DNA from: Gemmiger formicilis
Lineage (GTDB): Bacteria > Bacillota_I > Bacilli_A > RFN20 > CAG-826
Reading direction: 5' to 3'
DNA length: 64,000 bases
NCBI GenBank assembly: GCA_963626345.1
Contig: CAVFXI010000015.1
Span: forward strand, 12,485 to 76,484
Every line of letters begins with the position of its first letter. Position 1 is the first letter of the stretch. This document shows, piece by piece, positions 12,218 to 51,012 of the stretch. The notes under the pieces are model-generated. The model saw nothing but the letters and a program-made list of their open reading frames with translations. It had not been told where the DNA came from and did not search any database. A program made the translations under genes and the position numbers.

Positions 12218-13325
12218 CTATTTTCCCCCTTTTGAAATCAATTCAAGATAACCATATACAAATTTATTAATATCGCCATCCATTACATTATTAATTTGAG
12301 TATCTTCAACATTTGTTCTATTATCCTTAACTAAAGTATAAGGACAAAAAACATAACTTCTAATTTGACTACCCCATTCAATATTTTTCTTTTGACCAAC
12401 AAGATCATTTTTCATTTCTTCGTTTTTTTCTTTTTGAAGTTCATAAAGTTTAGAACGAAGCATATTCATTGCCATTTCTTTATTTTTTAATTGGAATCTA
12501 TCAATTTGGCAAGAAACAACAATACCAGTAGGCAAATGTGTAATTCTAACAGCGGTTTCGACTTTATTAACGTTTTGTCCTCCAGCACCACTTGATCTAT
12601 AAGTGTCGATTTTCAAGTCACTATCTTTAATTTCAATATTAATTGCATCATCAAGTTGAGGAACAACATTTACACTAGCAAACGAAGTATGTCTTCTTTT
12701 ATTTGCATCAAATGGAGAAATTCTTACTAAACGATGAACACCTTTTTCGCCTTTTAATAATCCATAAGCATATTTACCACTTATTAATAATGTAACTGAT
12801 TTAACCCCTATTCCATCGCCGACATCAAAATCAGCAACTTTATAAGTTAAGCCATTTCTTTCGCAAAATCTTGTGTACATTCTTAAAAGCATATTAGCCC
12901 AATCACAAGCTTCCGTACCACCTGCACCTGGATGAATATCTAAAATACAATCAGAATCATCATATTTTCCAGCAAAAAGAATCAATCTTTTTAATTCGCT
13001 TAAATGATTTTCCATTTCCTTGTATTCGTCACTTGCAAGATCTATCATCTCAAGATCATTAATATCTAAAGTTTCAGCAAGATCAAAAAGATCATTCACT
13101 TCTTTTTGGGTTTTTGAAAAAAGCTCCTTTTTATAAATTAAATCATTCTTATGTTCAATGATTTTATTTGCTTCTCTTTGGTTCAACCAAAAAGAATCAT
13201 CCATGCTTTTATCATCAATTTCTTTTATTTCTTGGTTAATTTTTTCTACATCAAAGAGAATTACCGAGCTTGGTAATTTCTACTTTTGCTGCATTTAATC
13301 CTTCCTTAATTGTATATAAATCCAT
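12218..13325 (-). CDS. prfB: peptide chain release factor 2, made by a programmed +1 frameshift: ORF0 13325..13254, shift, then 13252..12218
   Basis: Short ORF0 [24 protein letters not shown] ends at CTT TGA T (13256..13250). The +1 frame continues [22 protein letters not shown] into the 328-aa ORF, which carries SPF and GGQ motifs. Confidence 0.9.
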
Positions 13326-37942: not shown

Positions 37943-38572
37943 TCATTTATTTTTCTGTTTTTTCTCAGAAGCCCTTTTCACATAATCACCGAGATATGGA
38001 AATATAACAATCAATAAACTAAATAAAAAGGCAATCCAGAAAACAAATACTGGTTCATAAGATTTAAAGAAAAAATAAAAAGAAGCTGAAAGAGACCAAA
38101 AGAATAACAAAAGCAAAGTTCTGCTATATTTAAGTCTTCCAGTAATCAAATTTATTATAAAAATAGTTAATGGAATAAACGGAATTATAAATAATAATCC
38201 TGCATATTTTTCAACAGAATCGTAAATTGAACGGACGCTTAATAAGGAAACTTCTAAAATGATAATTATCGTAATAAAAATAATTAAAATAAAAATTATT
38301 TTGATCCAAATTTCTCTTTTTTTGATTGCTGCATCTAATATCTTTTCATCCACATCTTTAAAATCATGTTCTTCAAATAAATATTCAATTGGAACACCAA
38401 AAAAATCTGCAATTTCTTTTAACATTTCCGCATCAGGAAGAGAATCCCCTCTTTCCCATTTAGAAATAGCTTTATTACTATAATGCAATTTATCTGCCAA
38501 CTCGCTTTGAGTTAGCTTTTTACCTTTTCTTAAATAGGTAATATTTTTTGCAATAATTTCCTTTGTGCTCAT
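37943..38572 (-). CDS. membrane-anchored XRE-family HTH regulator
   Basis: N-terminal HTH_3 (LTQSELADKLHYSNKAISKWERG) followed by three hydrophobic helices. Confidence 0.7.
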   Translation of the reverse strand: MSTKEIIAKNITYLRKGKKLTQSELADKLHYSNKAISKWERGDSLPDAEMLKEIADFFGVPIEYLFEEHDFKDVDEKILDAAIKKREIWIKIIFILIIFITIIIILEVSLLSVRSIYDSVEKYAGLLFIIPFIPLTIFIINLITGRLKYSRTLLLLFFWSLSASFYFFFKSYEPVFVFWIAFLFSLLIVIFPYLGDYVKRASEKKQKNK

Positions 38573-38653
38573 ACATAAATATTAATTCAAAACAAATAAA
38601 AAAGCGACCATCAATTTAATGTGGTCGCCTTTTGAAAAAGAGAAAAAATTTTC

Positions 38654-39283
38654 TTATTTAGATTCTGGTTTATCTTCAATATCACCAACAACTTGTGAAT
38701 CAACAAAATTGTTGAATTTTTTTGCATGGTGAACAACATATAAAGCAAAACAAAGTTGAACAACCCCAGCCATTATTAAAATAATGCCAACCAAAACAAA
38801 TAATACTGAAACAACATTATTTCCAGCTCCACTATAATAAACACCAAGAACAGTTGAACCTAATGCTGAACCAATAATACCGAACACCAATTGCAAAACT
38901 TGGATTGTTGAACACCCTAAGACTATAAATCCCTTTAATGCTCTTACAATCAAAATTATGCCAAACCCAATTAAACTAACACCAATAATCAATGGCAAAA
39001 GTTCAACTAAAAGCAATGGGTCAACAAATAATAAAATTGATAAAACAACCAAAATTAAACCGCTTAAAAAATCGCCACTCAATAAAGGTGCACTAAATGT
39101 AATAGATGCGACAACAAGTAAGATGCCGTTCATCATAAAATAAACACCGACCATGTAGCCAATAAATGCATATAAATTAGCGTTGTTATTAAAACAAATA
39201 ATTAATATACCAAGAATAATTAATAATGCTGCTTCAATATATACGGTCCATTTCCATCTCCCAAAAATTTCTTTCATTTTCAT
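38654..39283 (-). CDS. DUF308/HdeD-like multi-pass membrane protein
   Basis: 212 aa, about 6 TM, Gly/Leu-rich helices. Start moved to the ATG after the GGAGG SD. Confidence 0.55.
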   Translation of the reverse strand: MKMKEIFGRWKWTVYIEAALLIILGILIICFNNNANLYAFIGYMVGVYFMMNGILLVVASITFSAPLLSGDFLSGLILVVLSILLFVDPLLLVELLPLIIGVSLIGFGIILIVRALKGFIVLGCSTIQVLQLVFGIIGSALGSTVLGVYYSGAGNNVVSVLFVLVGIILIMAGVVQLCFALYVVHHAKKFNNFVDSQVVGDIEDKPESK

Positions 39284-39371
39284 AACCTCCAACTCTTATT
39301 ATAAGATAATATTTTTTTAATTAAATCTATAAAGAGTAGATTTTTTTGATTTTTTTATTTATATAAATAAC

Positions 39372-40715
39372 TCACTCTAATGATTCAACAGCTTTTAAGA
39401 TTTTAAAATCAGTAATTTTCTTCTTTAATTTCTCAAGTGTTTTGTCTTGAATCTTTCTACATTCATCAATTATATCGTTTGCAGATGATTGAATTGTTTG
39501 AGCTTTCTTTAACATATCTTCAATCGATTTATTAAGCGAAGAAAAAGACTTAACCAAAATTTCTTCTTTAAAATCTTCAAACATTTTTATAGCTTCTTCT
39601 TTATTTATTAAATCTTTTCTCTCGGTGGTAATATAGCTTGCATATTTCACAGAAAGCGATGCAAGCAAACTTAAAAAAGTCATAAAATATTCAGGTCTAA
39701 CAACATACATTTTGTCGTATTCGCTTACTCTAAAAACTGGCGCATCATTAACAGCCCTGTCTCTTTCAAGATTACTTACCAAAATAGCATAATCGCATTT
39801 CTTTTTTCTTCGATCAGTATCAAGTTTCTTATAGTGTTCACTATTTTTATTTTTTGAAGTACTATTTGGATTCTTATCTTTCATATCTAAAAGAACAGAT
39901 GTTAAAAGGGTATTCTCTTTTTTAGAAGAATCTGCATAAACTTTAAAAATAAAATCGCCTTTGGTTTTCTTTGAATCAAGTTCATCTTCAACCGCAATAT
40001 TGTCTTTAATCCATTCGCAATTTTCAAATCCATATATTGCATGCTCTTGATATTGGTTGTCACACCATTGCTCTAAGTTTTCGCCAAGATCTTTAATTCC
40101 AACCATTGATTTTGCAAAAGTTAATGAATTGTTTTGGGCTTCAAGTTCTTTAATTTTTGCATTCATTTCTTTTTCTTTATTTTGAACTGCTTCACTTACT
40201 TTAATATCGACTTTACTTAGTTCCAATTTTAAATTACTTATTTCTTCATCTTTAATTTGTTTAACTTTATCAATTTCTTTCATCTTTTCGACTTCATACT
40301 TTGATTCAATAAGTTTTTTGTCGTTTTCAAGAGTAGAAATTTTATTTTCGTAAGAATTTTTGATTTGTTCTTTTGCAAGCCTTAAATCACTATCTTTTAT
40401 GCTATTCATTTTTTCAATTTCGGAATTTAATTGATTAATTTTGTCTATTAATTTTTGCTTATCTTCGTTATTTTCGCTTTCACACTCTAATTTGATTTTT
40501 TGAATTTCTAAAGTGTGCTTCTCATTTTGCGCTTTTAATTCCTTTTCAAGCATTGAACGAAATTCAATCTCTTTTTCTTTATTTATTAAATTTTGAAGAA
40601 AAGAAACATCTACTTTATTTAATGTTGCCAAATCGATAATGTCACCTTTTTTCGCATCTTCTAATAATTCAATTTCAGTAGAATTGTTTACTTTAATTTT
40701 ATCGTTTATGTTCAT
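39372..40715 (-). CDS. coiled-coil protein with a C-terminal PD-(D/E)xK-type nuclease-like domain (RmuC/DUF2130-like); third gene of the XRE-ImmA operon
   Basis: About 200 aa of Lys/Glu heptad-rich coiled coil. Then GIKDLGENLEQW...KGDFIFKVYAD...VLLDMKDK...CDYAILVS, with the D...(D/E)xK spacing seen in RmuC/DUF2130 proteins. 4-nt start/stop overlap with the ImmA gene. Confidence 0.5.
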   Translation of the reverse strand: MNINDKIKVNNSTEIELLEDAKKGDIIDLATLNKVDVSFLQNLINKEKEIEFRSMLEKELKAQNEKHTLEIQKIKLECESENNEDKQKLIDKINQLNSEIEKMNSIKDSDLRLAKEQIKNSYENKISTLENDKKLIESKYEVEKMKEIDKVKQIKDEEISNLKLELSKVDIKVSEAVQNKEKEMNAKIKELEAQNNSLTFAKSMVGIKDLGENLEQWCDNQYQEHAIYGFENCEWIKDNIAVEDELDSKKTKGDFIFKVYADSSKKENTLLTSVLLDMKDKNPNSTSKNKNSEHYKKLDTDRRKKKCDYAILVSNLERDRAVNDAPVFRVSEYDKMYVVRPEYFMTFLSLLASLSVKYASYITTERKDLINKEEAIKMFEDFKEEILVKSFSSLNKSIEDMLKKAQTIQSSANDIIDECRKIQDKTLEKLKKKITDFKILKAVESLE

Positions 40716-41272
40716 AATTGTTCCTTTCTTTCCTTTTCTTTTTTCATTTCTTTTATTCTTTTAAATGCTGCGTATGTTGCACATTCAGGGGAAACACAAC
40801 AATTATTCTCAATTTCTTCAACAGACATATCTTTTGTTTCTGCTGGCGGAACAAGAAGGTACCCTGCTAATGCATTTGCTTGCCATTCAGGATCTTTATA
40901 TGCTTGTGGTTTTTCTTCTGATTCCTTTGGATGTCTACCAGTTACTGTCATTAAAAAGAAATGACATAATTCATGTGTTAGTGTAAATCTACAACGTGGA
41001 TCATCACAACATGCTCCATCAAATTGCGATTCTTTAATAAATAAAGTGTTAGTTAAAAAATCATATTTGGCTAATTCCCCTTCACCAAATATTTTGTTGT
41101 TATCATCTAAAATTTGATACTCAAAATCCAAAAAGTTTTCGTTATTTTGCATAGACTCTAAAACATCAACAATAGGAAATTTTAGACTCTTACAATTAAA
41201 TAAATTCCTTATATTCTCTGCATATACTTTTAGTTGATGAGTATTTGTAGGAGCACAGAAATAATAAGACAC
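40712..41272 (-). CDS. ImmA/IrrE-family zinc metallopeptidase (CapP-like)
   Basis: HEXXH (LTHELCHFF) followed by the family signature PEWQANALAGYLLVP. Confidence 0.8.
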   Translation of the reverse strand: MSYYFCAPTNTHQLKVYAENIRNLFNCKSLKFPIVDVLESMQNNENFLDFEYQILDDNNKIFGEGELAKYDFLTNTLFIKESQFDGACCDDPRCRFTLTHELCHFFLMTVTGRHPKESEEKPQAYKDPEWQANALAGYLLVPPAETKDMSVEEIENNCCVSPECATYAAFKRIKEMKKEKERKEQL

Positions 41273-41273
41273 T

Positions 41274-41636
41274 TTATTTTTTCTCCTCCTCTTCTAATAG
41301 CTTTTTAAGTTTATCGAGAGTATTTGGATCAATATTTTTAATAGACCTTGCAAACATTAAAGAAACATTTTGTTGCTCTGCATCCATTGTTTCTAAATTC
41401 AAAGAGACTTTTTGCTGCGTAATATCAAAAGCATTTTGCAAATCTCTTTTTTGTTCATTGCCCAAATTATAAATATTTGAAATGTCCTCGACCCATTTTG
41501 CTGGAATGTTCTTTTTCCCAACTTCTACTGCGCTGAGAAACGAAGTGCTAACATTTAGTTTTTCAGCCATATCTTTCATATTTTCAAAATTATCTAATCT
41601 AATATGACGTAAAACTTTTCCAAATTCTGTGTACAT
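41274..41636 (-). CDS. XRE-family HTH regulator (CapH/ImmR-like), first gene of the operon
   Basis: HTH_3 (MYTEFGKVLRHIRLDNFENMKDMAEKLNVSTSFLSAVEVGKKNIP). Start placed at the Met with a GGAGGGA SD 7 nt upstream; a sigma70 promoter lies inside the ORF-track N-terminus. Confidence 0.8.
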   Translation of the reverse strand: MYTEFGKVLRHIRLDNFENMKDMAEKLNVSTSFLSAVEVGKKNIPAKWVEDISNIYNLGNEQKRDLQNAFDITQQKVSLNLETMDAEQQNVSLMFARSIKNIDPNTLDKLKKLLEEEEKK

Positions 41637-41651
41637 ATGGGTCCCTCCACT

Positions 41652-41680
41652 ATAATAAAATAAATAAATTTGCTTGTCAA
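41652..41680 (-). promoter_or_regulatory. near-consensus sigma70 promoter of the XRE-ImmA-nuclease-like operon
   Basis: Minus strand reads TTGACA-17 nt-TATTAT, then AGTGGAGGGACCCAT ATG. Confidence 0.6.
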
Positions 41681-41748
41681 CCATAAAGGTTGATAAATTT
41701 AACTTAATTTGTTTAAATTCTTTTCTACAAAATAATTATACAAGAATC

Positions 41749-42447
41749 TTATTCTTTTTCTTTAAAAAGTTTTATTTTTTCAAACTCTTTTTCTTCTAAT
41801 GGATTGTATTTATATTTTTTAATCATTTTTATAATTCTTTTTGCAACTTTATAGTCATTAAATAATTTTATTAGTTCATCATATATCTTTTGAATTAATT
41901 CTTCTAACGATCGCCCTTTTATAAACTCAACTTCAGTATCGCTAACCATTTCAAAAGTAAAACCTTCTAAAACAAAACCATCAATTAATAAAAGCACAAT
42001 TTTTATATAAAACAAAAATAGATTGGTTAAATTTTTCCTATGACTTCCTTTTTTCGCAGTTTTAATATTCTTAAAAATCTCAAAATCTTCAATAGAATAA
42101 CCACGAGGCAAACAGTAAATTAAAATAAAACAATTAATTAGCGATTCGCTTTCTTCATTAAACTTATTTCTTAAGATTTTTTCTTTTTCAAAATGGGCAT
42201 AAAAATTAACTAATGAATCACTAATAAAATAATCTCTGCAGTCTTTATTTATATATGTAGCTTGAAAATAATAAGATATCAAAACTGCATAAAAAGTTAT
42301 TCTTTCAATTTCATTAAATTTTTCATCTACTGAAATATCATAATTTTTAAACAAATCTAAAATATTCTTCTTTATATTATAAAAAGAAGTAAAACAACTT
42401 TCTTGGATGGTTCTAACCTTCCATTTATACTTAACATCGAAAATCAT
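41749..42447 (-). CDS. hypothetical protein, 232 aa, no recognisable domain
   Basis: ORF with an SD (GGGAGGAA). Its leader is the second copy of the C7 cassette. Confidence 0.5.
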   Translation of the reverse strand: MIFDVKYKWKVRTIQESCFTSFYNIKKNILDLFKNYDISVDEKFNEIERITFYAVLISYYFQATYINKDCRDYFISDSLVNFYAHFEKEKILRNKFNEESESLINCFILIYCLPRGYSIEDFEIFKNIKTAKKGSHRKNLTNLFLFYIKIVLLLIDGFVLEGFTFEMVSDTEVEFIKGRSLEELIQKIYDELIKLFNDYKVAKRIIKMIKKYKYNPLEEKEFEKIKLFKEKE

Positions 42448-43507: not shown

Positions 43508-43629
43508 TTTTCTATAAATCTAATTTTTAGTTTTTTCAATTTATCACTAAAAACTATGTTTTTATAATGTTATAATATCAAAGATTTCTATTGAGGAAAT
43601 TAATTTAATTAATGAAAGGAGTCTTACTC

Positions 43630-44322
43630 ATGGAATACTCAGCTGAAATAAAACACATGTGTACAGTAAGAAACGGATGTGATGCTGGCGTTAGCCCACT
43701 CCCAGAAGAAGGAAAATGGGTTAAAGTTAAAGAGATTAAAGATATCTCTGGATTAAGTCATGGTATTGGTTGGTGCGCTCCACAACAAGGTTGTGCAAAG
43801 CTCACTCTTAATGTCAAAGATGGAATTATTGAAGAAGCTTTAGTTGAAACTATTGGATGTTCAGGAATGACTCATAGTGCTGCTATGGCTGTTGAAGTTT
43901 TACAAGGAAAAACCTTACTTGAAGCTGTTAATAGCGATCTTGTTTGCGATGCAATTAACGTTGCTATGAGAGAAATCTTCAAACAATTTATGTATGGTAG
44001 AACTCAAACTGCTTTCAGTGAAAATGGTTTACCAGTTGGATCATCACTCGATGATTTAGGAAAGAATTTAAGATCACAAGTCGGAACTATGTTTGCTAGT
44101 AAAGCAAAAGGTCCACGTTACCTTGAAATGACTGATGGATACGTTTTACACTTAGGTCTTGATAAAAATGATGAAGTTATTGGTTATCAATTTGTTAACT
44201 TAGGCAAAATGATGAAAGCCATTAGAGAAGGCGTTGATCCAAAAGAAGCTTATGAAAAAGCTATCGGAACCTATGGACGATATAAAGACGCAGTCAAAAC
44301 TATCGATCCAAGAAAGGAATAA
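43630..44322 (+). CDS. IscU/NifU-like FeS scaffold homologue (divergent; partner of the GGGtGRT protein)
   Basis: MEYSAEIKHMCTVRNGC...GWCAPQQGCAKLTLNVKDGIIEEALVETIGCSGMTHSAAMAVEVLQGKTLLEAV...LVCDAINVAM parallels IscU (YSEKVIDHYENPRN...CGDVMKLQIKV...GCGSAIASSS...GKSLDEA...HCSILAED) with three Cys retained. Start at the ATG after an AAAGGAG SD. Confidence 0.65.
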   Translation: MEYSAEIKHMCTVRNGCDAGVSPLPEEGKWVKVKEIKDISGLSHGIGWCAPQQGCAKLTLNVKDGIIEEALVETIGCSGMTHSAAMAVEVLQGKTLLEAVNSDLVCDAINVAMREIFKQFMYGRTQTAFSENGLPVGSSLDDLGKNLRSQVGTMFASKAKGPRYLEMTDGYVLHLGLDKNDEVIGYQFVNLGKMMKAIREGVDPKEAYEKAIGTYGRYKDAVKTIDPRKE

Positions 44323-44327
44323 TTATC

Positions 44328-45326
44328 ATGGTTACATTTGAAAATTATGAACGTAGAAAAGATTCTATCGATGCATGTTTAAAAGCTAATGGAATTAAAG
44401 ATTTAGAAGAATGCAGAGCAATGTGCCTTGAAAAAGGTGTTGATGTCGAAAAAATCGTTAAAGGTGTTCAACCAATTTGTTTTGATAACGCTGTTTGGGC
44501 CTATACTTTAGGTTGTGCTATTGCTATCAAACGTAATGTTAAAGAAGCTGAAAAAATTGCTGTTTGTATTGGTGAAGGTTTACAAGCTTTCACAGTTCCA
44601 GGAAGTGTCGCAAATATTCGTGAAGTCGGTTTAGGTCATGGAAATCTTGCTAGCATGCTTCTTGATGAAAAAACAACTTGTTTCTGTTTCTTAGCAGGTC
44701 ACGAATCATTCGCAGCCGCTGAAGGCGCAATTGGTATCGCTTTAAATGCTAACAAAGTTAGAAAGAACCCAATCAATGTTATCTTAAATGGCTTAGGAAA
44801 GAATGCTGCATATGTCATTAGCCGTATTAATGGCTTTACATATGTTCGTACAGAACTTGATAGACACACCAATACATTAAAGATTATTGATGAAATTAGA
44901 TTTAGTGAAGGCGATCGTGGAAATATTCGTTGCTATGGATCTGATGATGCCACAGAAGGCGTTGAAATTATGAAACATGAAAACGTTGGCGTTTCAATTA
45001 CTGGAAACTCAACCAACCCAACACGTTTCCAACACATCGTTGCTGGTCAATATAAGAACTGGTGCTGGAACCACGGAAAGAAATACTTCAGTGTTGCTAG
45101 TGGCGGCGGAACTGGTCGTACATTACACCCAGACAATATGGCTGCTGGTCCATCAAGTTATGGTTTAACAGATAATATGGGTCGTATGCATGCCGATGCT
45201 CAATTTGCAGGTAGCTCAAGTGTTCCTGCTCACGTTGAAATGATGGGCTTAATCGGTATGGGAAATAACCCAATGGTCGGTGCTAGTGTTGCTTGCTCAG
45301 TCGCTGTTTACGAAGCATTAAAGTAA
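44328..45326 (+). CDS. GGGtGRT-family uncharacterised protein
   Basis: 332 aa containing the literal GGGTGRT heptapeptide (aa 259-265; nt 45102..45122). Translationally coupled to the IscU-like gene (6-nt gap, SD AAAGGAA). Confidence 0.6.
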   Translation: MVTFENYERRKDSIDACLKANGIKDLEECRAMCLEKGVDVEKIVKGVQPICFDNAVWAYTLGCAIAIKRNVKEAEKIAVCIGEGLQAFTVPGSVANIREVGLGHGNLASMLLDEKTTCFCFLAGHESFAAAEGAIGIALNANKVRKNPINVILNGLGKNAAYVISRINGFTYVRTELDRHTNTLKIIDEIRFSEGDRGNIRCYGSDDATEGVEIMKHENVGVSITGNSTNPTRFQHIVAGQYKNWCWNHGKKYFSVASGGGTGRTLHPDNMAAGPSSYGLTDNMGRMHADAQFAGSSSVPAHVEMMGLIGMGNNPMVGASVACSVAVYEALK

Positions 45327-46812: not shown

Positions 46813-46999
46813 AAATTTTCTTCCTTTTTCAACCTCAATAGTCTACCACAATTCACAAAAAGAATAAAAACAAGAATGGTTAATCTATCAATATTTAATA
46901 ATGAGCCAATAATCGCAGTTTTTACTGTTCAAATTAAAAATTAAGTTCAAAAAAGGTATTTTTTTACTGATTTTTATAGAAAGAATCGACACAATCCTA

Positions 47000-47021
47000 T
47001 ATAATCTATAAATAGATTATA
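47000..47021. promoter_or_regulatory. perfect 10-bp inverted repeat TATAATCTAT-AA-ATAGATTATA, overlapping the -10 region and abutting the hypB SD (candidate repressor operator)
   Basis: Checked base by base; ends at the AGGAG SD, 10 nt before the hypB ATG. Confidence 0.55.
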
Positions 47022-47030
47022 GGAGTTACT

Positions 47031-47714
47031 ATGGAAGATAAGGTACGGGTAATTGAGCTCAAAGAGAGTGTTTTTAAAAACAACGACGAAAAAGCTAACG
47101 AATTAAGAAAAGAACTCAAAGAAAATGGTGTATTCTTACTTAATTTGATGTCAAGCCCAGGAAGCGGAAAGACAACCACACTAACAAAACTCATCAATCG
47201 AATTAAAAACGAATTTAAGATTGGGGTTATGGAAGCAGATATTGATGGAGATATTGATACAAGCGACATAATCAAAAACACCGGGGTAAGTGCTATTCAA
47301 CTTCATACAGGAGGAATGTGCCACTTAGATGCCGGTATGACAAAACAAGGTTTAGATAGCCTAGAAAGTTTGAAAGATTTTGATTTAATTTTTCTAGAAA
47401 ATGTCGGCAATCTTGTATGCCCAGCTGAGTTTGATACAGGAGCTTCGAAGAGTGCAGTTATTCTCTCAGTTCCTGAAGGCGACGATAAACCACTCAAATA
47501 TCCACTTATGTTCGAAAAAGTTGATCTAGTTATAATCAACAAAATAGATGTTAAAGAATATTTCGATTTTGATTTCAAACAATGCGAAGAATGGATAAGA
47601 ATGAGAAATAAAAATTGCAAGATAATAAAAATATCTGCAAAGACTGAAGAAGGATTAGATGAATTGGCTGAATTTATTAAAAGTGAAGTGAACACTTGGA
47701 AAGGAAATGAATAA
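47031..47714 (+). CDS. hypB: Ni-insertion GTPase HypB
   Basis: P-loop SPGSGKTT, CH motif GGMCH, and ENVGNLVCPA (HypB-specific; UreG differs). No N-terminal His/Cys-rich metal-binding tail. Confidence 0.85.
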   Translation: MEDKVRVIELKESVFKNNDEKANELRKELKENGVFLLNLMSSPGSGKTTTLTKLINRIKNEFKIGVMEADIDGDIDTSDIIKNTGVSAIQLHTGGMCHLDAGMTKQGLDSLESLKDFDLIFLENVGNLVCPAEFDTGASKSAVILSVPEGDDKPLKYPLMFEKVDLVIINKIDVKEYFDFDFKQCEEWIRMRNKNCKIIKISAKTEEGLDELAEFIKSEVNTWKGNE

Positions 47715-47716
47715 TT

Positions 47717-50623
47717 ATGCCAGAACAAAATAAAAATAAAGAAGTAGTTTCAAAGTATCAAGGAGAGGCAAATCCTGATCAAGAGATTTTAAAACTCGCT
47801 AAGAAAATTACTGATGTTGTTGCTCACAAACTTAAAGGCGTTACAAGCAACGACCCAGAATATTGGGGTTTAAGAGAAGTTCTTACTCATGAAGAAGCAG
47901 TTGTTTTAAACAAAATGAAGTTAAGAAAACTTTATACAATGGAAGAACTCATTAAAATGAATCCTGACATTGAACCAGCTGAACTCCAAAAAATGTATGA
48001 TACCATGGCAATTAAAGGTATTATCGAATACGATTATGGAGATAACTATAACGATGATGGACCAATCAAAGATGCTCCAAAAATTAAACGTTATAAACTT
48101 TCATTCTTCGTTCCAGGTTCAGCAGAACTTTTCAACTCAACGTATCAACAAATCGATGAAAAGCCACCAGTTGCATCTTTCTTTGAAAGAATGACATTTA
48201 TTCCACTTGCTGGTGTTACTGAAATGGTACCTCCAGGTGGTGATGGAATTGGTATGCACGTTATTCCTGTTGAAAAAGCAATTGAATTTAATAACGAAGC
48301 AATTAAATTAGAAAAAATTTCCTATTGGTTAAAAAAATATAGTGGTCACCTTAGCGCTGGAACCTGTTCTTGCAGACTTTCAAGAGCTAAATTAGGTGAT
48401 GGTTGTGCTGATGATGGACACGACTGGTGTATTCAAGTTGGCGATATGGCTGACTATTGTGTTGAAACAGGAAGATCACACTACATTACACATGAAGAAG
48501 CTTTAAGAATTTTAAAACGTTCAGAAGAAAATGGTTTCGTTCACCAAATCACAAATATTGATGGACCAGACAAAATCTTTGATATTTGTAACTGTGATGT
48601 AAAGATTTGTAATGCTTTAAGAACAAGCATGCTCTTCAATACTCCAAACCTTTCAAGAAGCTCATATACTGCAAAAGTTGATCCAGCAAAATGTGTTGCT
48701 TGCGGATTATGTGTTGAATATTGTCCAGGTGGTGCTGTTAAACTTGGTCAAAAATTATGTAGAAAAGATGGAACTGCTCAAGTATATCCAAAAGCACCTT
48801 TACCAGATAGATTAAAATGGGGTAAATATGCTTGGGATGAAAATTATAGAGATACAGCTAGAATGACTAATACCTATAAAACAGGTAGCGCTCCATGTAA
48901 GGCAGCATGTCCAGCTCACGTTCCTGTTCAAGCTTACTTAAAGAAAGCTCACGAAGGAAAATTTGCTGAAGCATTAGAATTAATTAAGACTGCTAATCCA
49001 TTCCCAGCAGTTTGTGGACGTATTTGTAACAAACGTTGCGAAGAAGAATGTACTCGTGGTGATATTGATAAGGCAGTTTCAATTGATGCAGTTAAGAAAT
49101 TTATTGCTGATAAAGATATTAATTCAAAGACAAGAGTCATTCCTCAAAAAGTTATGCCAACTTGTAATGATGAAGGATTCAGTGAAAAGATTGCCATTAT
49201 CGGCGCAGGTCCAGCTGGTTTAAGTGCCGCTTACTTCTTAGCTTTACTTGGATACAAACCAACAGTCTTCGAAAAGAACGCAAGACCTGGTGGTATGATG
49301 GTTTATGGAATTCCTACATATAAATTAGAAAAAGACGTTATTGATGCAGAAATTGAAGTCATTAAAGAACTTGGTGTTGAAATTAAATGCAATACTGAAG
49401 TTGGTAAAGATGTCACTATTGATGAACTCAAGAAACAAGGATATAAAGCCTTCTATGTTGCAATCGGTTGCCAAGGCGGAAGACTTCCTGGAGTCCCACA
49501 TGAAGACGCAAATAATGCATTAATCGCTGTTGATTATTTAAGACATTCATTTGAACATCAAGATGAAAAATTTGAAGGCGATGTCGTCGTAGTTGGTGGC
49601 GGAAACGTTGCAGTTGATTGTGCAAGAACAGCCCAAAGACTTGGTGCAAAAGCTGTCACTATGGTTTCACTTGAAACTAGAGATATTATGCCAGCAAGCA
49701 AAGAAGAAATTGAAGAAACCCTTGAAGAAGGCATCAATATCTTAAATGCTTATGGTCCAAAAGAACTTCAAGTTGATAAAAACAATAATGTTACAGCTGT
49801 TGTTTTCAAAAAATGTACAAAATTATATGATGAAAATCATAAATTCAGTCCTGAATATGATGAAAATGATACAGTCACTGTTCCAGCAAGCAAAGTCGTC
49901 TTTGCTATCGGTCAAACCGTTGTTTGGGGCGATTTATTAAAAGGAACAAAAGTTGAATTCACACATGGTGTCTACCCAGCAGCTGATAAATTAACATTCC
50001 AAACTGCTGACCCAGACATTTATGTTGGTGGCGATGTCTTCACTGGTCCAAAATTTGTAATTGATGCAATTGCTCAAGGACATTTCGTTGCTGAATCATT
50101 ACATAGACATGTCCATGCTTCAGAAGGTGCACATCCAACTATTGGTTTAGAAAGACATAACTTCACTGCTTTTGACAAGAAAGACATTCAATATCCACAA
50201 GGTTATGATAATGCTGGAAGACAAGAAGCAGGAATGGATGAAAAAGTTGATTATAAACATTCATTTAAAGATGCTCACTTAACATTAACCGAAGAACAAG
50301 TTAAGATTGAAACTGGAAGATGCTTAAGTTGTGGTGCTTCTGTTGTTGATCCAAACAAGTGTATTGGTTGTGGTATTTGTACAACTAAATGTAAATTCGA
50401 TGCAATCCACTTATTCAGAGATCATCCAGAAATGAGTACAATGACTATTGCCGAAGATAAAGTCGGTGGTTTGTTAAAATATAGCTTAAAACGTGGCATC
50501 AAGATTCTTCTTCATAGCGGAAGCAAAGAAGCTAAAGAGATGAAGAAACGTAGAAAAGAATTCAATAAAAACAAAGAATTCTTAGAAAAGAATCCAAATA
50601 CTGGCAATTCAAACAATGCATGA
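47717..50623 (+). CDS. YgfK-like large FeS flavoprotein oxidoreductase: Cys/His-rich N-terminal domain, two ferredoxin-type clusters, GltD/NfnB-like FAD/NAD(P) domain, C-terminal 4Fe-4S
   Basis: 968 aa; CVACGLCVEYCP, APCKAACPAHVPV...CGRICNKRCEEEC (GltD N-terminal type), dinucleotide fold IAIIGAGPAGLSAA and VVVVGGGNVAVDCA, C-terminal CIGCGICTTKC. N-terminal GTCSCRLSRAKLGDGCADDGHDWCIQVGDMADYC. Flanked by hypB and hypA with 2-nt gap and 8-nt overlap. Confidence 0.65.
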   Translation: MPEQNKNKEVVSKYQGEANPDQEILKLAKKITDVVAHKLKGVTSNDPEYWGLREVLTHEEAVVLNKMKLRKLYTMEELIKMNPDIEPAELQKMYDTMAIKGIIEYDYGDNYNDDGPIKDAPKIKRYKLSFFVPGSAELFNSTYQQIDEKPPVASFFERMTFIPLAGVTEMVPPGGDGIGMHVIPVEKAIEFNNEAIKLEKISYWLKKYSGHLSAGTCSCRLSRAKLGDGCADDGHDWCIQVGDMADYCVETGRSHYITHEEALRILKRSEENGFVHQITNIDGPDKIFDICNCDVKICNALRTSMLFNTPNLSRSSYTAKVDPAKCVACGLCVEYCPGGAVKLGQKLCRKDGTAQVYPKAPLPDRLKWGKYAWDENYRDTARMTNTYKTGSAPCKAACPAHVPVQAYLKKAHEGKFAEALELIKTANPFPAVCGRICNKRCEEECTRGDIDKAVSIDAVKKFIADKDINSKTRVIPQKVMPTCNDEGFSEKIAIIGAGPAGLSAAYFLALLGYKPTVFEKNARPGGMMVYGIPTYKLEKDVIDAEIEVIKELGVEIKCNTEVGKDVTIDELKKQGYKAFYVAIGCQGGRLPGVPHEDANNALIAVDYLRHSFEHQDEKFEGDVVVVGGGNVAVDCARTAQRLGAKAVTMVSLETRDIMPASKEEIEETLEEGINILNAYGPKELQVDKNNNVTAVVFKKCTKLYDENHKFSPEYDENDTVTVPASKVVFAIGQTVVWGDLLKGTKVEFTHGVYPAADKLTFQTADPDIYVGGDVFTGPKFVIDAIAQGHFVAESLHRHVHASEGAHPTIGLERHNFTAFDKKDIQYPQGYDNAGRQEAGMDEKVDYKHSFKDAHLTLTEEQVKIETGRCLSCGASVVDPNKCIGCGICTTKCKFDAIHLFRDHPEMSTMTIAEDKVGGLLKYSLKRGIKILLHSGSKEAKEMKKRRKEFNKNKEFLEKNPNTGNSNNA

Positions 50624-50960
50624 GCTAGGAATCGTATTTTACGTCATTGATTCAGTTGAAAAAACTTGCAAAGAAAATAACGTAAAAGAAGTTAAAAGCG
50701 TTACATTAGAAGTTGGTGAAGTCTCCACTATTGTCCCATCATACTTTGAAGATTGCTTTAAATGGGCAATTAGGAAGACTGAATACATGAAAAACTGTAA
50801 ACTCAACTTAATCACTATTAAAGCTTTGACTTATTGCAAACACTGCAAAGAAACATATGACACCGTAACTTATGGTCGCCAATGTCCTCATTGTGGATCT
50901 TATGACACTTATCTTGTTACAGGAGATCAATGTAACATTAAAGATATAGAAGTTATATAA
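50616..50960 (+). CDS. hypA: Ni-metallochaperone HypA
   Basis: N-terminal MHE Ni-binding motif and a zinc module CKHC...CPHC; 114 aa. Confidence 0.85.
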   Translation: MHELGIVFYVIDSVEKTCKENNVKEVKSVTLEVGEVSTIVPSYFEDCFKWAIRKTEYMKNCKLNLITIKALTYCKHCKETYDTVTYGRQCPHCGSYDTYLVTGDQCNIKDIEVI

Positions 50961-50971
50961 AAGCATATTAA

Positions 50972-51012
50972 ATGCACGCATTAAACATCAAGTTTCATGC
51001 GTGCATTTTTTT
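50972..51012 (+). terminator. intrinsic terminator of the hypB-ygfK-like-hypA operon
   Basis: ATGCACGCAT-15 nt loop-ATGCGTGCAT followed by TTTTTTT. Confidence 0.75.

Follow-up and report, generated by a model that had tools for sequence, protein, structure and literature searches.

A hypB–isrA-like–hypA operon from a gut-type Bacilli lineage: a putative nickel-chaperone client and a candidate link to fatty-acid diene reduction

Introduction

Which enzyme would be served by the nickel chaperones HypA and HypB when their genes flank not a hydrogenase gene but that of a large iron–sulfur (FeS) flavoprotein? This question is raised by a 64,000-nucleotide (64-kb) stretch of Gemmiger formicilis DNA (GenBank assembly GCA_963626345.1, contig CAVFXI010000015.1)—hereafter the window, numbered from its first letter—in which three open reading frames (ORFs) lie on the + strand: hypB at 47031–47714, the gene of a 968-residue FeS flavoprotein at 47717–50623, and hypA at 50616–50960. 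A preliminary description of this DNA had placed hypB and hypA on either side of the flavoprotein gene, which we found to be so, and had raised the idea that the large oxidoreductase depends on HypA and HypB (HypAB), a dependence that would be new.

The dependence is well supported, as we discuss below, but its novelty does not stand. Kronen et al. described an isoprene-induced operon in Acetobacterium wieringae ISORED-2 (mSystems 2023, PMC10134865); its products are a 901-residue flavin adenine dinucleotide (FAD)-dependent oxidoreductase named IsrA, two HypA proteins, one HypB, and a ferredoxin. IsrA (A. wieringae ISORED-2 / strain Y, VUZ27132.1) is a putative isoprene (conjugated diene) reductase, and the same authors proposed that nickel is inserted into a six-cysteine (Cys6) 'cluster V' drawn from two CxC motifs, C180/C182 and C254/C256 (PMC10134865). 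Later work (PMC12509576 and a pair of bioRxiv preprints from 2026) keeps the label 'putative' for the enzyme and reports no metal analysis; in Pelotomaculum, isoprene raises transcript levels of hypA ~370-fold and of hypB ~585-fold (bioRxiv 10.64898/2026.02.25.708027). The idea of a HypAB client is thus right but already published and still unproven, and since both the client linkage and the nickel proposal date from 2023 (PMC10134865), the present locus is a further example rather than a discovery.

Here we place the window operon as a further member of this known, biochemically uncharacterised IsrA kind, in which the client of the nickel chaperones is probably the flavoprotein. We consider it likely that hypB, the isrA-like gene, and hypA form an operon, complete in itself, for the production and maturation of an IsrA-family oxidoreductase, with nickel insertion by HypAB and reduction of a conjugated diene. 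The sections that follow address the relationship to IsrA, the Cys6 site, the two chaperones, the recurrence of the arrangement, the alternatives, and a recurring isomerase neighbour that suggests a substrate.

Relationship of the Flavoprotein to IsrA

Judged by alignment, the 968-residue protein is a full-length homologue of IsrA, not of YgfK. IsrA itself, identified by a second homology search together with its genomic context, was recovered as P0300—a protein of 901 residues with CxC motifs at 180 and 254 and, further on, a ferredoxin motif at 289, matching the publication—and its locus on GCA_902175055.1 has the order isrA-hypA-hypB-fdx-hypA. Residues 47–899 of the window protein align with residues 24–874 of IsrA at 45% identity (705 bits). 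The marks of an IsrA-type ('clade 9') protein are all present in the sequence: full-length homology, an N-terminus without recognised domains, the Cys6 site, four [4Fe-4S] sites, an FAD/NAD(P)H module, and adjoining hypA and hypB genes. In both proteins the N-terminal domain is unannotated and holds six invariant cysteines, with its two CxC motifs at a spacing of 74 residues; it is followed directly by a ferredoxin motif and then by Fer4_20, the FAD/NAD(P) module, and a C-terminal ferredoxin motif. Both operons hold hypA and hypB, and their HypB proteins are 60% identical.

The two systems also differ in several respects. The window protein is longer than IsrA, its N-terminus being extended by ~37 residues and its basic C-terminal tail also being longer, and it does not have the 26-residue insertion at IsrA 756–782—the alignment is gapped in this region, and the insertion is missing from other Acetobacterium homologues as well (PMC10134865). 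The gene order is hypB-gene-hypA rather than that of the isr locus, and unlike the isr operon the window operon has neither a second hypA nor the 350-residue ferredoxin paralogue of the N-terminal domain. IsrA comes from an acetogen, whereas the host here is an uncultured, low-GC, gut-type, sugar-fermenting Bacilli lineage; the substrates probably differ.

The family around these proteins is large and closely conserved. Homology searches gave at least 8000 matches, the best 120 of which are all ~950–990 residues long and at least 67% identical, and a pattern scan with one genome per species found at least 597 species loci. An identical 968-residue protein, in the same gene order, occurs on four NCBI contigs from metagenome-assembled genomes, and the assemblies with the identical gene are GCA_963613805.1, GCA_963644165.1, GCA_963610545.1, and GCA_963618895.1; the nearest named relative, at 83% identity, is from 'Bacillales bacterium UBA6877'.

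Domain Architecture and the Cys6 Site

The N-terminal domain (residues 1–315; 47717–48661, + strand as for all features of the operon) is the part of the protein that is distinctive for the family. It has no Pfam match, and in a phmmer search against the PDB it found no relative, the ferredoxin motif alone being matched. An AlphaFold 2 model of the domain built from 60 sequences reached a pLDDT of 75.9 and a pTM of 0.80; Foldseek searches of this model against the PDB returned nothing at E ≤ 1e-3, with weak winged helix-turn-helix matches to the N-terminal subdomain. The domain can be described as a winged-helix-like subdomain together with the Cys6 site. A full-length model from 15 close homologues was discarded as too poor (pLDDT 54). 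Among 1.84 billion proteins, a profile of the N-terminal domain matched 1399 cluster representatives at E ≤ 1e-3.

The Cys6 region comprises C217-S-C219, C238, C291-N-C293, and C298 (48365–48610) and is the proposed nickel/FeS active site, the counterpart of 'cluster V' in IsrA; the Cys/His-rich string picked out in the preliminary description lies at residues 215–248. All 81 of 81 species keep the six cysteines unchanged, along with H181, H276, E137, E186, R220, D232, D243, N292, and R302, and the cysteines and H276 stay invariant in the 60-sequence alignment, which reaches down to 30% identity. The spacing from C217/C219 to C291/C293 is 74 residues, identical to that between the two CxC motifs of IsrA.

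The remainder of the protein is readily assigned. A first ferredoxin-type CxxCxxCxxxC motif (C326–C336; 48692–48724; PF00037, Fer4 at 320–341) is invariant in all 81 species, and it is followed by Fer4_20 (residues 390–470; 48884–49126; PF14691, 75 bits), whose cysteines C394, C398, C433, C437, C441, and C445 are invariant across the same species and which would carry two [4Fe-4S] clusters as in dihydropyrimidine dehydrogenase (DPD), GltD, and NfnB. The FAD/NAD(P)H module spans residues 491–788 (49187–50080; PF07992, Pyr_redox_2, 105 bits; PF00070), and a C-terminal CxxC...CxxCxxCxxxC ferredoxin motif (C869–C892; 50321–50392; PF12837 and PF00037, Fer4 at 876–897) is again invariant in 81 of 81.

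Residues 390–800 resemble the NADPH-FAD-2x[4Fe-4S] module of NfnB, GltD, and the N-terminal part of DPD, in which Fer4_20 and Pyr_redox_2 are likewise combined, and the NCBIfam gltA, gltD, and PRK12771 models match the protein at E values from 1e-77 to 1e-135. The scores stay under the cutoffs for the glutamate synthase small subunit and NfnB (TIGR01316, 269 vs 472; TIGR01318, 259 vs 483; PRK12771, 452 vs 516). NfnB/GltD proteins are ~450–500 residues long and have neither the Cys6 domain nor the split ferredoxin, whereas the window protein has ~500 more residues; unlike it, none of the NfnB/GltD-type proteins is associated with nickel chaperones.

HypB and HypA

Both chaperones carry the signatures expected of their families—the HypA MHE motif and zinc module and the HypB GGMCH and ENVGNLVCPA motifs noted in the preliminary description are in place. 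HypB is a 227-residue nickel GTPase without the N-terminal His-rich extension; it passes the TIGR00073 equivalog model (238 bits, cutoff 121), matches PF02492, and has GSGKT at residue 44, GGMCH at 94, ENVGNLVCPA at 123, and NKID at 170, with the CH...C metal site present. HypA, a nickel metallochaperone of 114 residues, passes PF01155 (107 bits, cutoff 28.9) and has the N-terminal MHE along with CxxC pairs at C74/C77 and C90/C93, which make up a Cys4 zinc site.

The two differ in how closely they resemble their counterparts. HypB (47031–47714) shares 60.5% identity with its counterpart in the A. wieringae isr operon (L090:8142–8816) and 41% with E. coli HypB; HypA (50616–50960) is 26% identical to isr-operon HypA1 (L090:7714–8067) and 27% identical to E. 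coli HypA. On these identities the HypA partner appears to evolve faster by far than the client (45%) or HypB.

Both families are those of [NiFe]-hydrogenase (and Helicobacter urease) maturation, nickel-binding signatures included. Unlike in [NiFe]-hydrogenase systems, HypCDEF, the maturation protease, and hydrogenase subunits are absent nearby, and the client would be an FeS flavoprotein whose site contains cysteines only.

Recurrence of the HypA/HypB Linkage

Evidence for a functional link comes from recurrence of the arrangement. Our sample consisted of 80 further species loci plus the window—81 in all—named from Bacilli, Clostridia, Lachnospiraceae, Oscillospiraceae, Erysipelotrichaceae, Acholeplasmatales/Anaeroplasma, Coriobacteriia, Bacteroidales, and Spirochaetales. 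With the window proteins as tblastn queries, HypA was found in 76 of the 80 further loci, nearly always directly downstream or immediately upstream of the isrA-like gene, and HypB in ~61 of 80, mostly directly upstream; clustering of the ORFs within 6 kb gave HypA in 77 of 81 and HypB in 60 of 81, and no other ORF family in more than 12. At these frequencies—HypA adjoining the isrA-like gene in 77 loci, HypB no further than 6 kb away in 60—the pairing goes well past anything expected by chance. The hypA/hypB recurrence called for in the preliminary description is thus present, and it agrees with the published fractions of 0.73 and 0.56, that is, HypA near 73% and HypB near 56% of 988 IsrA homologues (PMC10134865).

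The recurring chaperones also retain their metal sites: MHE is present in 77 of 78 HypA proteins adjoining family members and the two CxxC pairs of the zinc site in 78 of 78, and the CH and ENVGNLVCP motifs are kept in ~66 of 69 linked HypB proteins. E. coli HypC, HypD, HypE, HycE, HycG, and HycI as queries found no homologue in 2.55 Mb of sequence from 170 family loci, and HypF gave one weak partial match there. Across phyla, genes of the IsrA family are accompanied by HypA and HypB genes but not by the other components of hydrogenase maturation; from this recurring gene order and the absence of HypCDE and hydrogenase subunits, the dependence of the oxidoreductase on HypAB is strongly supported.

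Other recurrent neighbours are limited to an ABC ATPase, DUF5692, a GntR-like regulator, and lineage-specific synteny, and none is hydrogenase-related. A DUF5692 membrane protein (PF18948, E 8e-128) adjoins the cluster in nine loci (L061, L068, L070, L072, L075, L076, L081, L083, and L084); it is a frequent neighbour in Kronen et al. as well (PMC10134865) and may be a transporter of substrate or metal. In seven loci from Lachnospiraceae/Pseudobutyrivibrio (L048, L049, L056, L057, L059, L066, and L080), five genes occupy the ~5.5 kb directly upstream of the IsrA-like gene—they encode a CooC-like P-loop ATPase with a CxC motif, two HgdA/B-like proteins (PF06050), a BcrAD/BadFG-type activator ATPase, and a 238-residue protein with a borderline match (24.1 bits) to the acetyl-CoA synthase subunit CdhC. 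Four of the seven lack HypB, and the five-gene set may provide ATP-driven low-potential electron input along with an alternative nickel insertase. One apparent 1727-residue fusion, in L008, proved to be an artefact in which the ORF call ran through an antisense ORF.

Proposed Mechanism and Alternative Explanations

In the mechanism that we propose, the HypB GTPase would load Ni(II) onto the MHE site of HypA. HypA would in turn place the metal in the N-terminal domain at the Cys6 site, made up of the two CxC motifs with C238 and C298, probably as part of an FeS cluster or next to one. NAD(P)H would reduce the FAD, and electrons would then cross four [4Fe-4S] clusters, two in Fer4_20 and two of ferredoxin type (the 326–336 and 869–892 motifs), to reach the Cys6 metallocentre, where an unactivated C=C bond of a conjugated diene would be reduced; electron bifurcation was also considered by Kronen et al. 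(PMC10134865). The same authors drew a resemblance to the A-cluster of acetyl-CoA synthase (PMC10134865). That cluster (Ni-Ni-[4Fe-4S], Cys-Gly-Cys) has in common with the window protein a Cys-X-Cys in a Cys-rich site and a suggested nickel beside an FeS cluster; the two have no similarity in sequence or fold, and the analogy is purely speculative.

Several points weigh against this proposal. Nickel content, the nature of the Cys6 site, and the reaction are all deduced for the whole family, IsrA included, and the spatial clustering of the six cysteines depends on the published ColabFold model of IsrA (PMC10134865). About a quarter of family members have no adjacent HypB, and 4 of 81 have no HypA. 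The window HypA scores 77.6 against the stricter TIGR00100 equivalog cutoff of 88.1 and is therefore a divergent HypA. Finally, our survey for other nickel enzymes of this genome spans the 64-kb window.

The alternative that survives best accepts the IsrA-like protein as the client and lets HypA and HypB deliver zinc, iron, or cobalt, or only aid folding or FeS assembly, with Cys6 as an unusual all-iron cluster. The divergence of HypA just described, with its 26–27% identity to HypA1 and E. coli HypA, would fit such a role, and the G-domain sites of HypB are able to bind zinc. CxC motifs, moreover, also bind plain FeS clusters, for instance in ferredoxin:thioredoxin reductase (PMC10134865). 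We nevertheless regard this explanation as unlikely—the MHE and CH...C nickel motifs are kept in nearly all linked copies of HypA and HypB, and some HypB-less Lachnospiraceae loci have the CooC-like ATPase nearby, CooC being another nickel-insertion factor.

In a second alternative, the true client of HypA and HypB would be a conventional nickel enzyme whose gene lies elsewhere in the genome ([NiFe]-hydrogenase, urease, carbon monoxide dehydrogenase (CODH)/acetyl-CoA synthase, or LarA), and the position of the chaperone genes would be incidental. The limits of the window survey leave room for such a client, and Pelotomaculum species with IsrA homologues also carry [NiFe]-hydrogenases (bioRxiv 10.64898/2026.02.25.708027). 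Within the window, Pfam annotation of essentially all ORFs of at least 150 residues found no hydrogenase, urease, CODH, LarA, or nickel transporter, in line with the preliminary description, which had reported no hydrogenase large or small subunit, urease, or CODH. An incidental position is hard to reconcile with the overlap of the genes, with a gene order that is the same in 77 of 81 species from several phyla, and with 2.55 Mb of neighbourhoods that hold no hypCDE or hydrogenase-subunit gene. The ISORED-2 genome, furthermore, has no [NiFe]-hydrogenase and no hypCDEF; separate maturases serve the other nickel enzymes of that strain, and induction of isrA is accompanied by that of the hyp genes (PMC10134865). 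We consider a client elsewhere quite improbable.

Could the window protein instead be a functional IsrA orthologue that reduces isoprene? It shares with IsrA its architecture, the Cys6 site, and the HypAB linkage; however, Acetobacterium strains whose homologues are 47–49% identical to IsrA do not reduce isoprene (PMC10134865), so that the window enzyme, at a mere 45%, probably has another substrate. The gap opposite the IsrA 756–782 insertion and the gut-type, sugar-fermenting host also speak against isoprene, and we judge this explanation very improbable. For the substrate of the window enzyme, isoprene is thus unlikely and a conjugated fatty acid may be a candidate.

The least probable explanation—a YgfK-type subunit of a selenate-reductase or purine-catabolism complex—can be dismissed: the TIGR03315 match, although at E 6e-82, covers only profile positions 444–888 and its 275 bits lie far under the cutoff of 835, BLASTP against E. 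coli YgfK (b2878) is confined to residues 392–795 at 31% identity, the N-terminal 390 residues have no similarity to YgfK, and of the ygfK neighbours xdhD, ssnA, ygfM, and molybdenum-cofactor genes none is present. YgfK is, like the window protein, a ~1000-residue protein with a GltD-like core (31% over ~400 residues) and C-terminal Cys motifs, but its N-terminal domain is unrelated and its context is one of molybdenum-enzyme and purine genes rather than hypAB. As only the core matches, the YgfK architecture given in the preliminary description holds for the GltD/NfnB-type module alone.

A Recurring Linoleate Isomerase Neighbour

A more concrete indication of substrate comes from the neighbourhoods of close relatives. 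A 460–490-residue FAD protein recurs beside the cluster in 10 of the 81 loci, in six of them on the same strand and immediately adjoining hypB, hypA, or the reductase gene. Against PDB 2B9W and five related entries this protein gives a match of E 1.6e-113, with ~50% identity over the full length. These six entries we take to be the polyunsaturated fatty acid (linoleate) isomerase PAI of Propionibacterium (Cutibacterium) acnes. Six PAI crystal structures and a ~425-residue P. acnes 'putative amino oxidase' have been described (PMC2885616); the description fits the six 424-residue PDB entries and so supports 2B9W as the P. acnes isomerase.

The association is concentrated near the window protein. 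In a neighbor-joining tree, the nearest clade of the window protein has the isomerase neighbour in 7 of 12 loci, and a 73%-identical relative that was found separately (L089) has the order isomerase-hypB-reductase-hypA. The loci concerned, from gut and rumen Firmicutes, are L007, L010, L011, L012, L018, L022, L023, L026, L034, and L041, together with L089 (3733–5199) and the metagenome set L092–L171; the operon partners of the isomerase are the IsrA-like reductase and HypA, in some cases along with HypB. Approached from the isomerase side, at least 70 of 80 metagenome loci have an IsrA-like gene ~20 nt downstream and 55 have HypA, in a sample that is redundant, mostly from human gut, and biased to close relatives of already linked isomerase genes. 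The PAI-type protein is a recurrent operon partner of the closest relatives of the window protein and not itself a relative of the window genes. To our knowledge, C. acnes PAI is not linked to a reductase.

The product of an isomerase of this type is a conjugated diene, the class of compound that IsrA is proposed to reduce; the pair would therefore carry out the first two steps of biohydrogenation. From this gene linkage, the enzymes of the nearest clade are suggested to reduce conjugated fatty-acid dienes. We raise more tentatively the possibility, to which we give less than an even chance, that the clade of the window protein is the long-sought nickel-dependent 'CLA reductase' (CLA, conjugated linoleic acid) of gut and rumen biohydrogenation, acting after a PAI-type isomerase; the route would run from linoleate to trans-10,cis-12 CLA and on to trans-10 18:1. 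No PAI homologue is encoded in the 64-kb window, and for this locus the fatty-acid idea is therefore a possibility only; the window enzyme would depend on conjugated dienes from the diet or from cross-feeding, or on an isomerase whose gene lies elsewhere.

Family members are present in Pseudobutyrivibrio and Roseburia, for which linoleate biohydrogenation has been described (PMC7339423); among 28 rumen isolates tested, C. acnes alone gave trans-10 intermediates (PMC7339423). Reviews from 2025–2026 name no gene for the rumen CLA reductase and call the enzymes poorly resolved. Neither Kronen et al. 2023 (PMC10134865) nor the 2025–2026 reviews on CLA and biohydrogenation mention the link between isomerase and IsrA-like genes, and it seems to be unreported in the literature searched. 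In a 75%-identical relative (L086:1926–4499), genes of phospholipid synthesis lie upstream of hypB—a lysyl-phosphatidylglycerol synthase transmembrane domain, a CDP-alcohol phosphatidyltransferase, and a phosphatidylserine decarboxylase—which may be another lipid-related context, or maybe a coincidence.

Operon Structure and the Surrounding Window

The three genes are tightly packed. The hypB stop codon (47712–47714) is followed 2 nt on by the ATG of the isrA-like gene at 47717, and the hypA ATG at 50616 overlaps the isrA-like stop codon (TGA, 50621–50623) by 8 nt; such overlap supports the translational coupling proposed in the preliminary description. Upstream lies a promoter-like site, TAGAAA-17-TATAAT (46977–47005), with 10 of 12 consensus matches—it is a consensus match alone, in a region where promoter-like sites are no more numerous than in shuffled sequence—and 3' of it, by sequence, an AGGAG ribosome-binding site for hypB (47022–47026). 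Downstream, a terminator-like hairpin (ATGCACGCAT / ATGCGTGCAT; 50972–51012), with a perfect 10-bp stem, a 15-nt loop, and a following T-run, begins 12 nt past the hypA stop; it was read directly from the sequence, having been overlooked by the automated scan because its loop exceeds 8 nt. The next gene converges on the operon. The promoter-like site and ribosome-binding site, the abutting and overlapping genes, the 3' hairpin, and the convergent neighbour together indicate a compact three-gene operon.

Between the -10-like hexamer and the hypB ribosome-binding site is a perfect palindrome, AATCTATAAATAGATT (AATCTAT-AA-ATAGATT, 47004–47019, + strand). We rejected it as a general operator, as the sequences preceding the operon in L005, L088, L086, and L089 do not conserve it; the palindrome may be a strain-specific operator or a chance match. 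No riboswitch or other RNA element was found around the operon, the sole match being a chance microRNA (E 0.89).

The window as a whole has a G+C content of ~29%, and its Pfam content is that of housekeeping genes (dnaX, recR, tmk, secA, uvrB, prfA/B, pyrG, glyA), sugar catabolism, and transporters. At 43612–45326 (+ strand) lies a gene pair encoding a 236-residue protein with a weak NifU/IscU-like stretch and a GGGtGRT-family protein (PF14057, E 1e-181), separated from hypB by an M18 aminopeptidase gene of opposite orientation. The preliminary description had offered this pair as another possible HypAB client, which we reject: it co-occurs in only two of the 80 other species loci (L005 and L018), plus the syntenic contig L088, and its synteny is limited to close relatives.

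Two further observations concern the - strand. Between sugar kinase and phosphatase genes, a block of small genes at 37943–42447 encodes an HTH_3 regulator, DUF308, DUF2130, an M78-peptidase-like protein, and three ORFs without Pfam match; it could be a mobile or defence-related remnant. An RF2-like release-factor ORF of 328 residues at 12218–13204 starts at profile position 14 of the PCRF domain. A programmed +1 frameshift at the start of prfB is well known, and the late start and short length of this ORF would fit such a frameshift.

Significance

If HypAB truly mature the IsrA-like protein, it would represent a new class among the few known nickel enzymes and the first HypAB client besides hydrogenase and urease. 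The family in question is very widespread in gut and rumen anaerobes, with the at least 597 species loci counted above and thousands of database proteins. What the present analysis adds is a concrete candidate substrate, by way of the operon link to linoleate isomerase—a link that would open the unidentified genes of ruminal and intestinal fatty-acid biohydrogenation to direct testing, including those of the trans-10 pathway tied to milk-fat depression.

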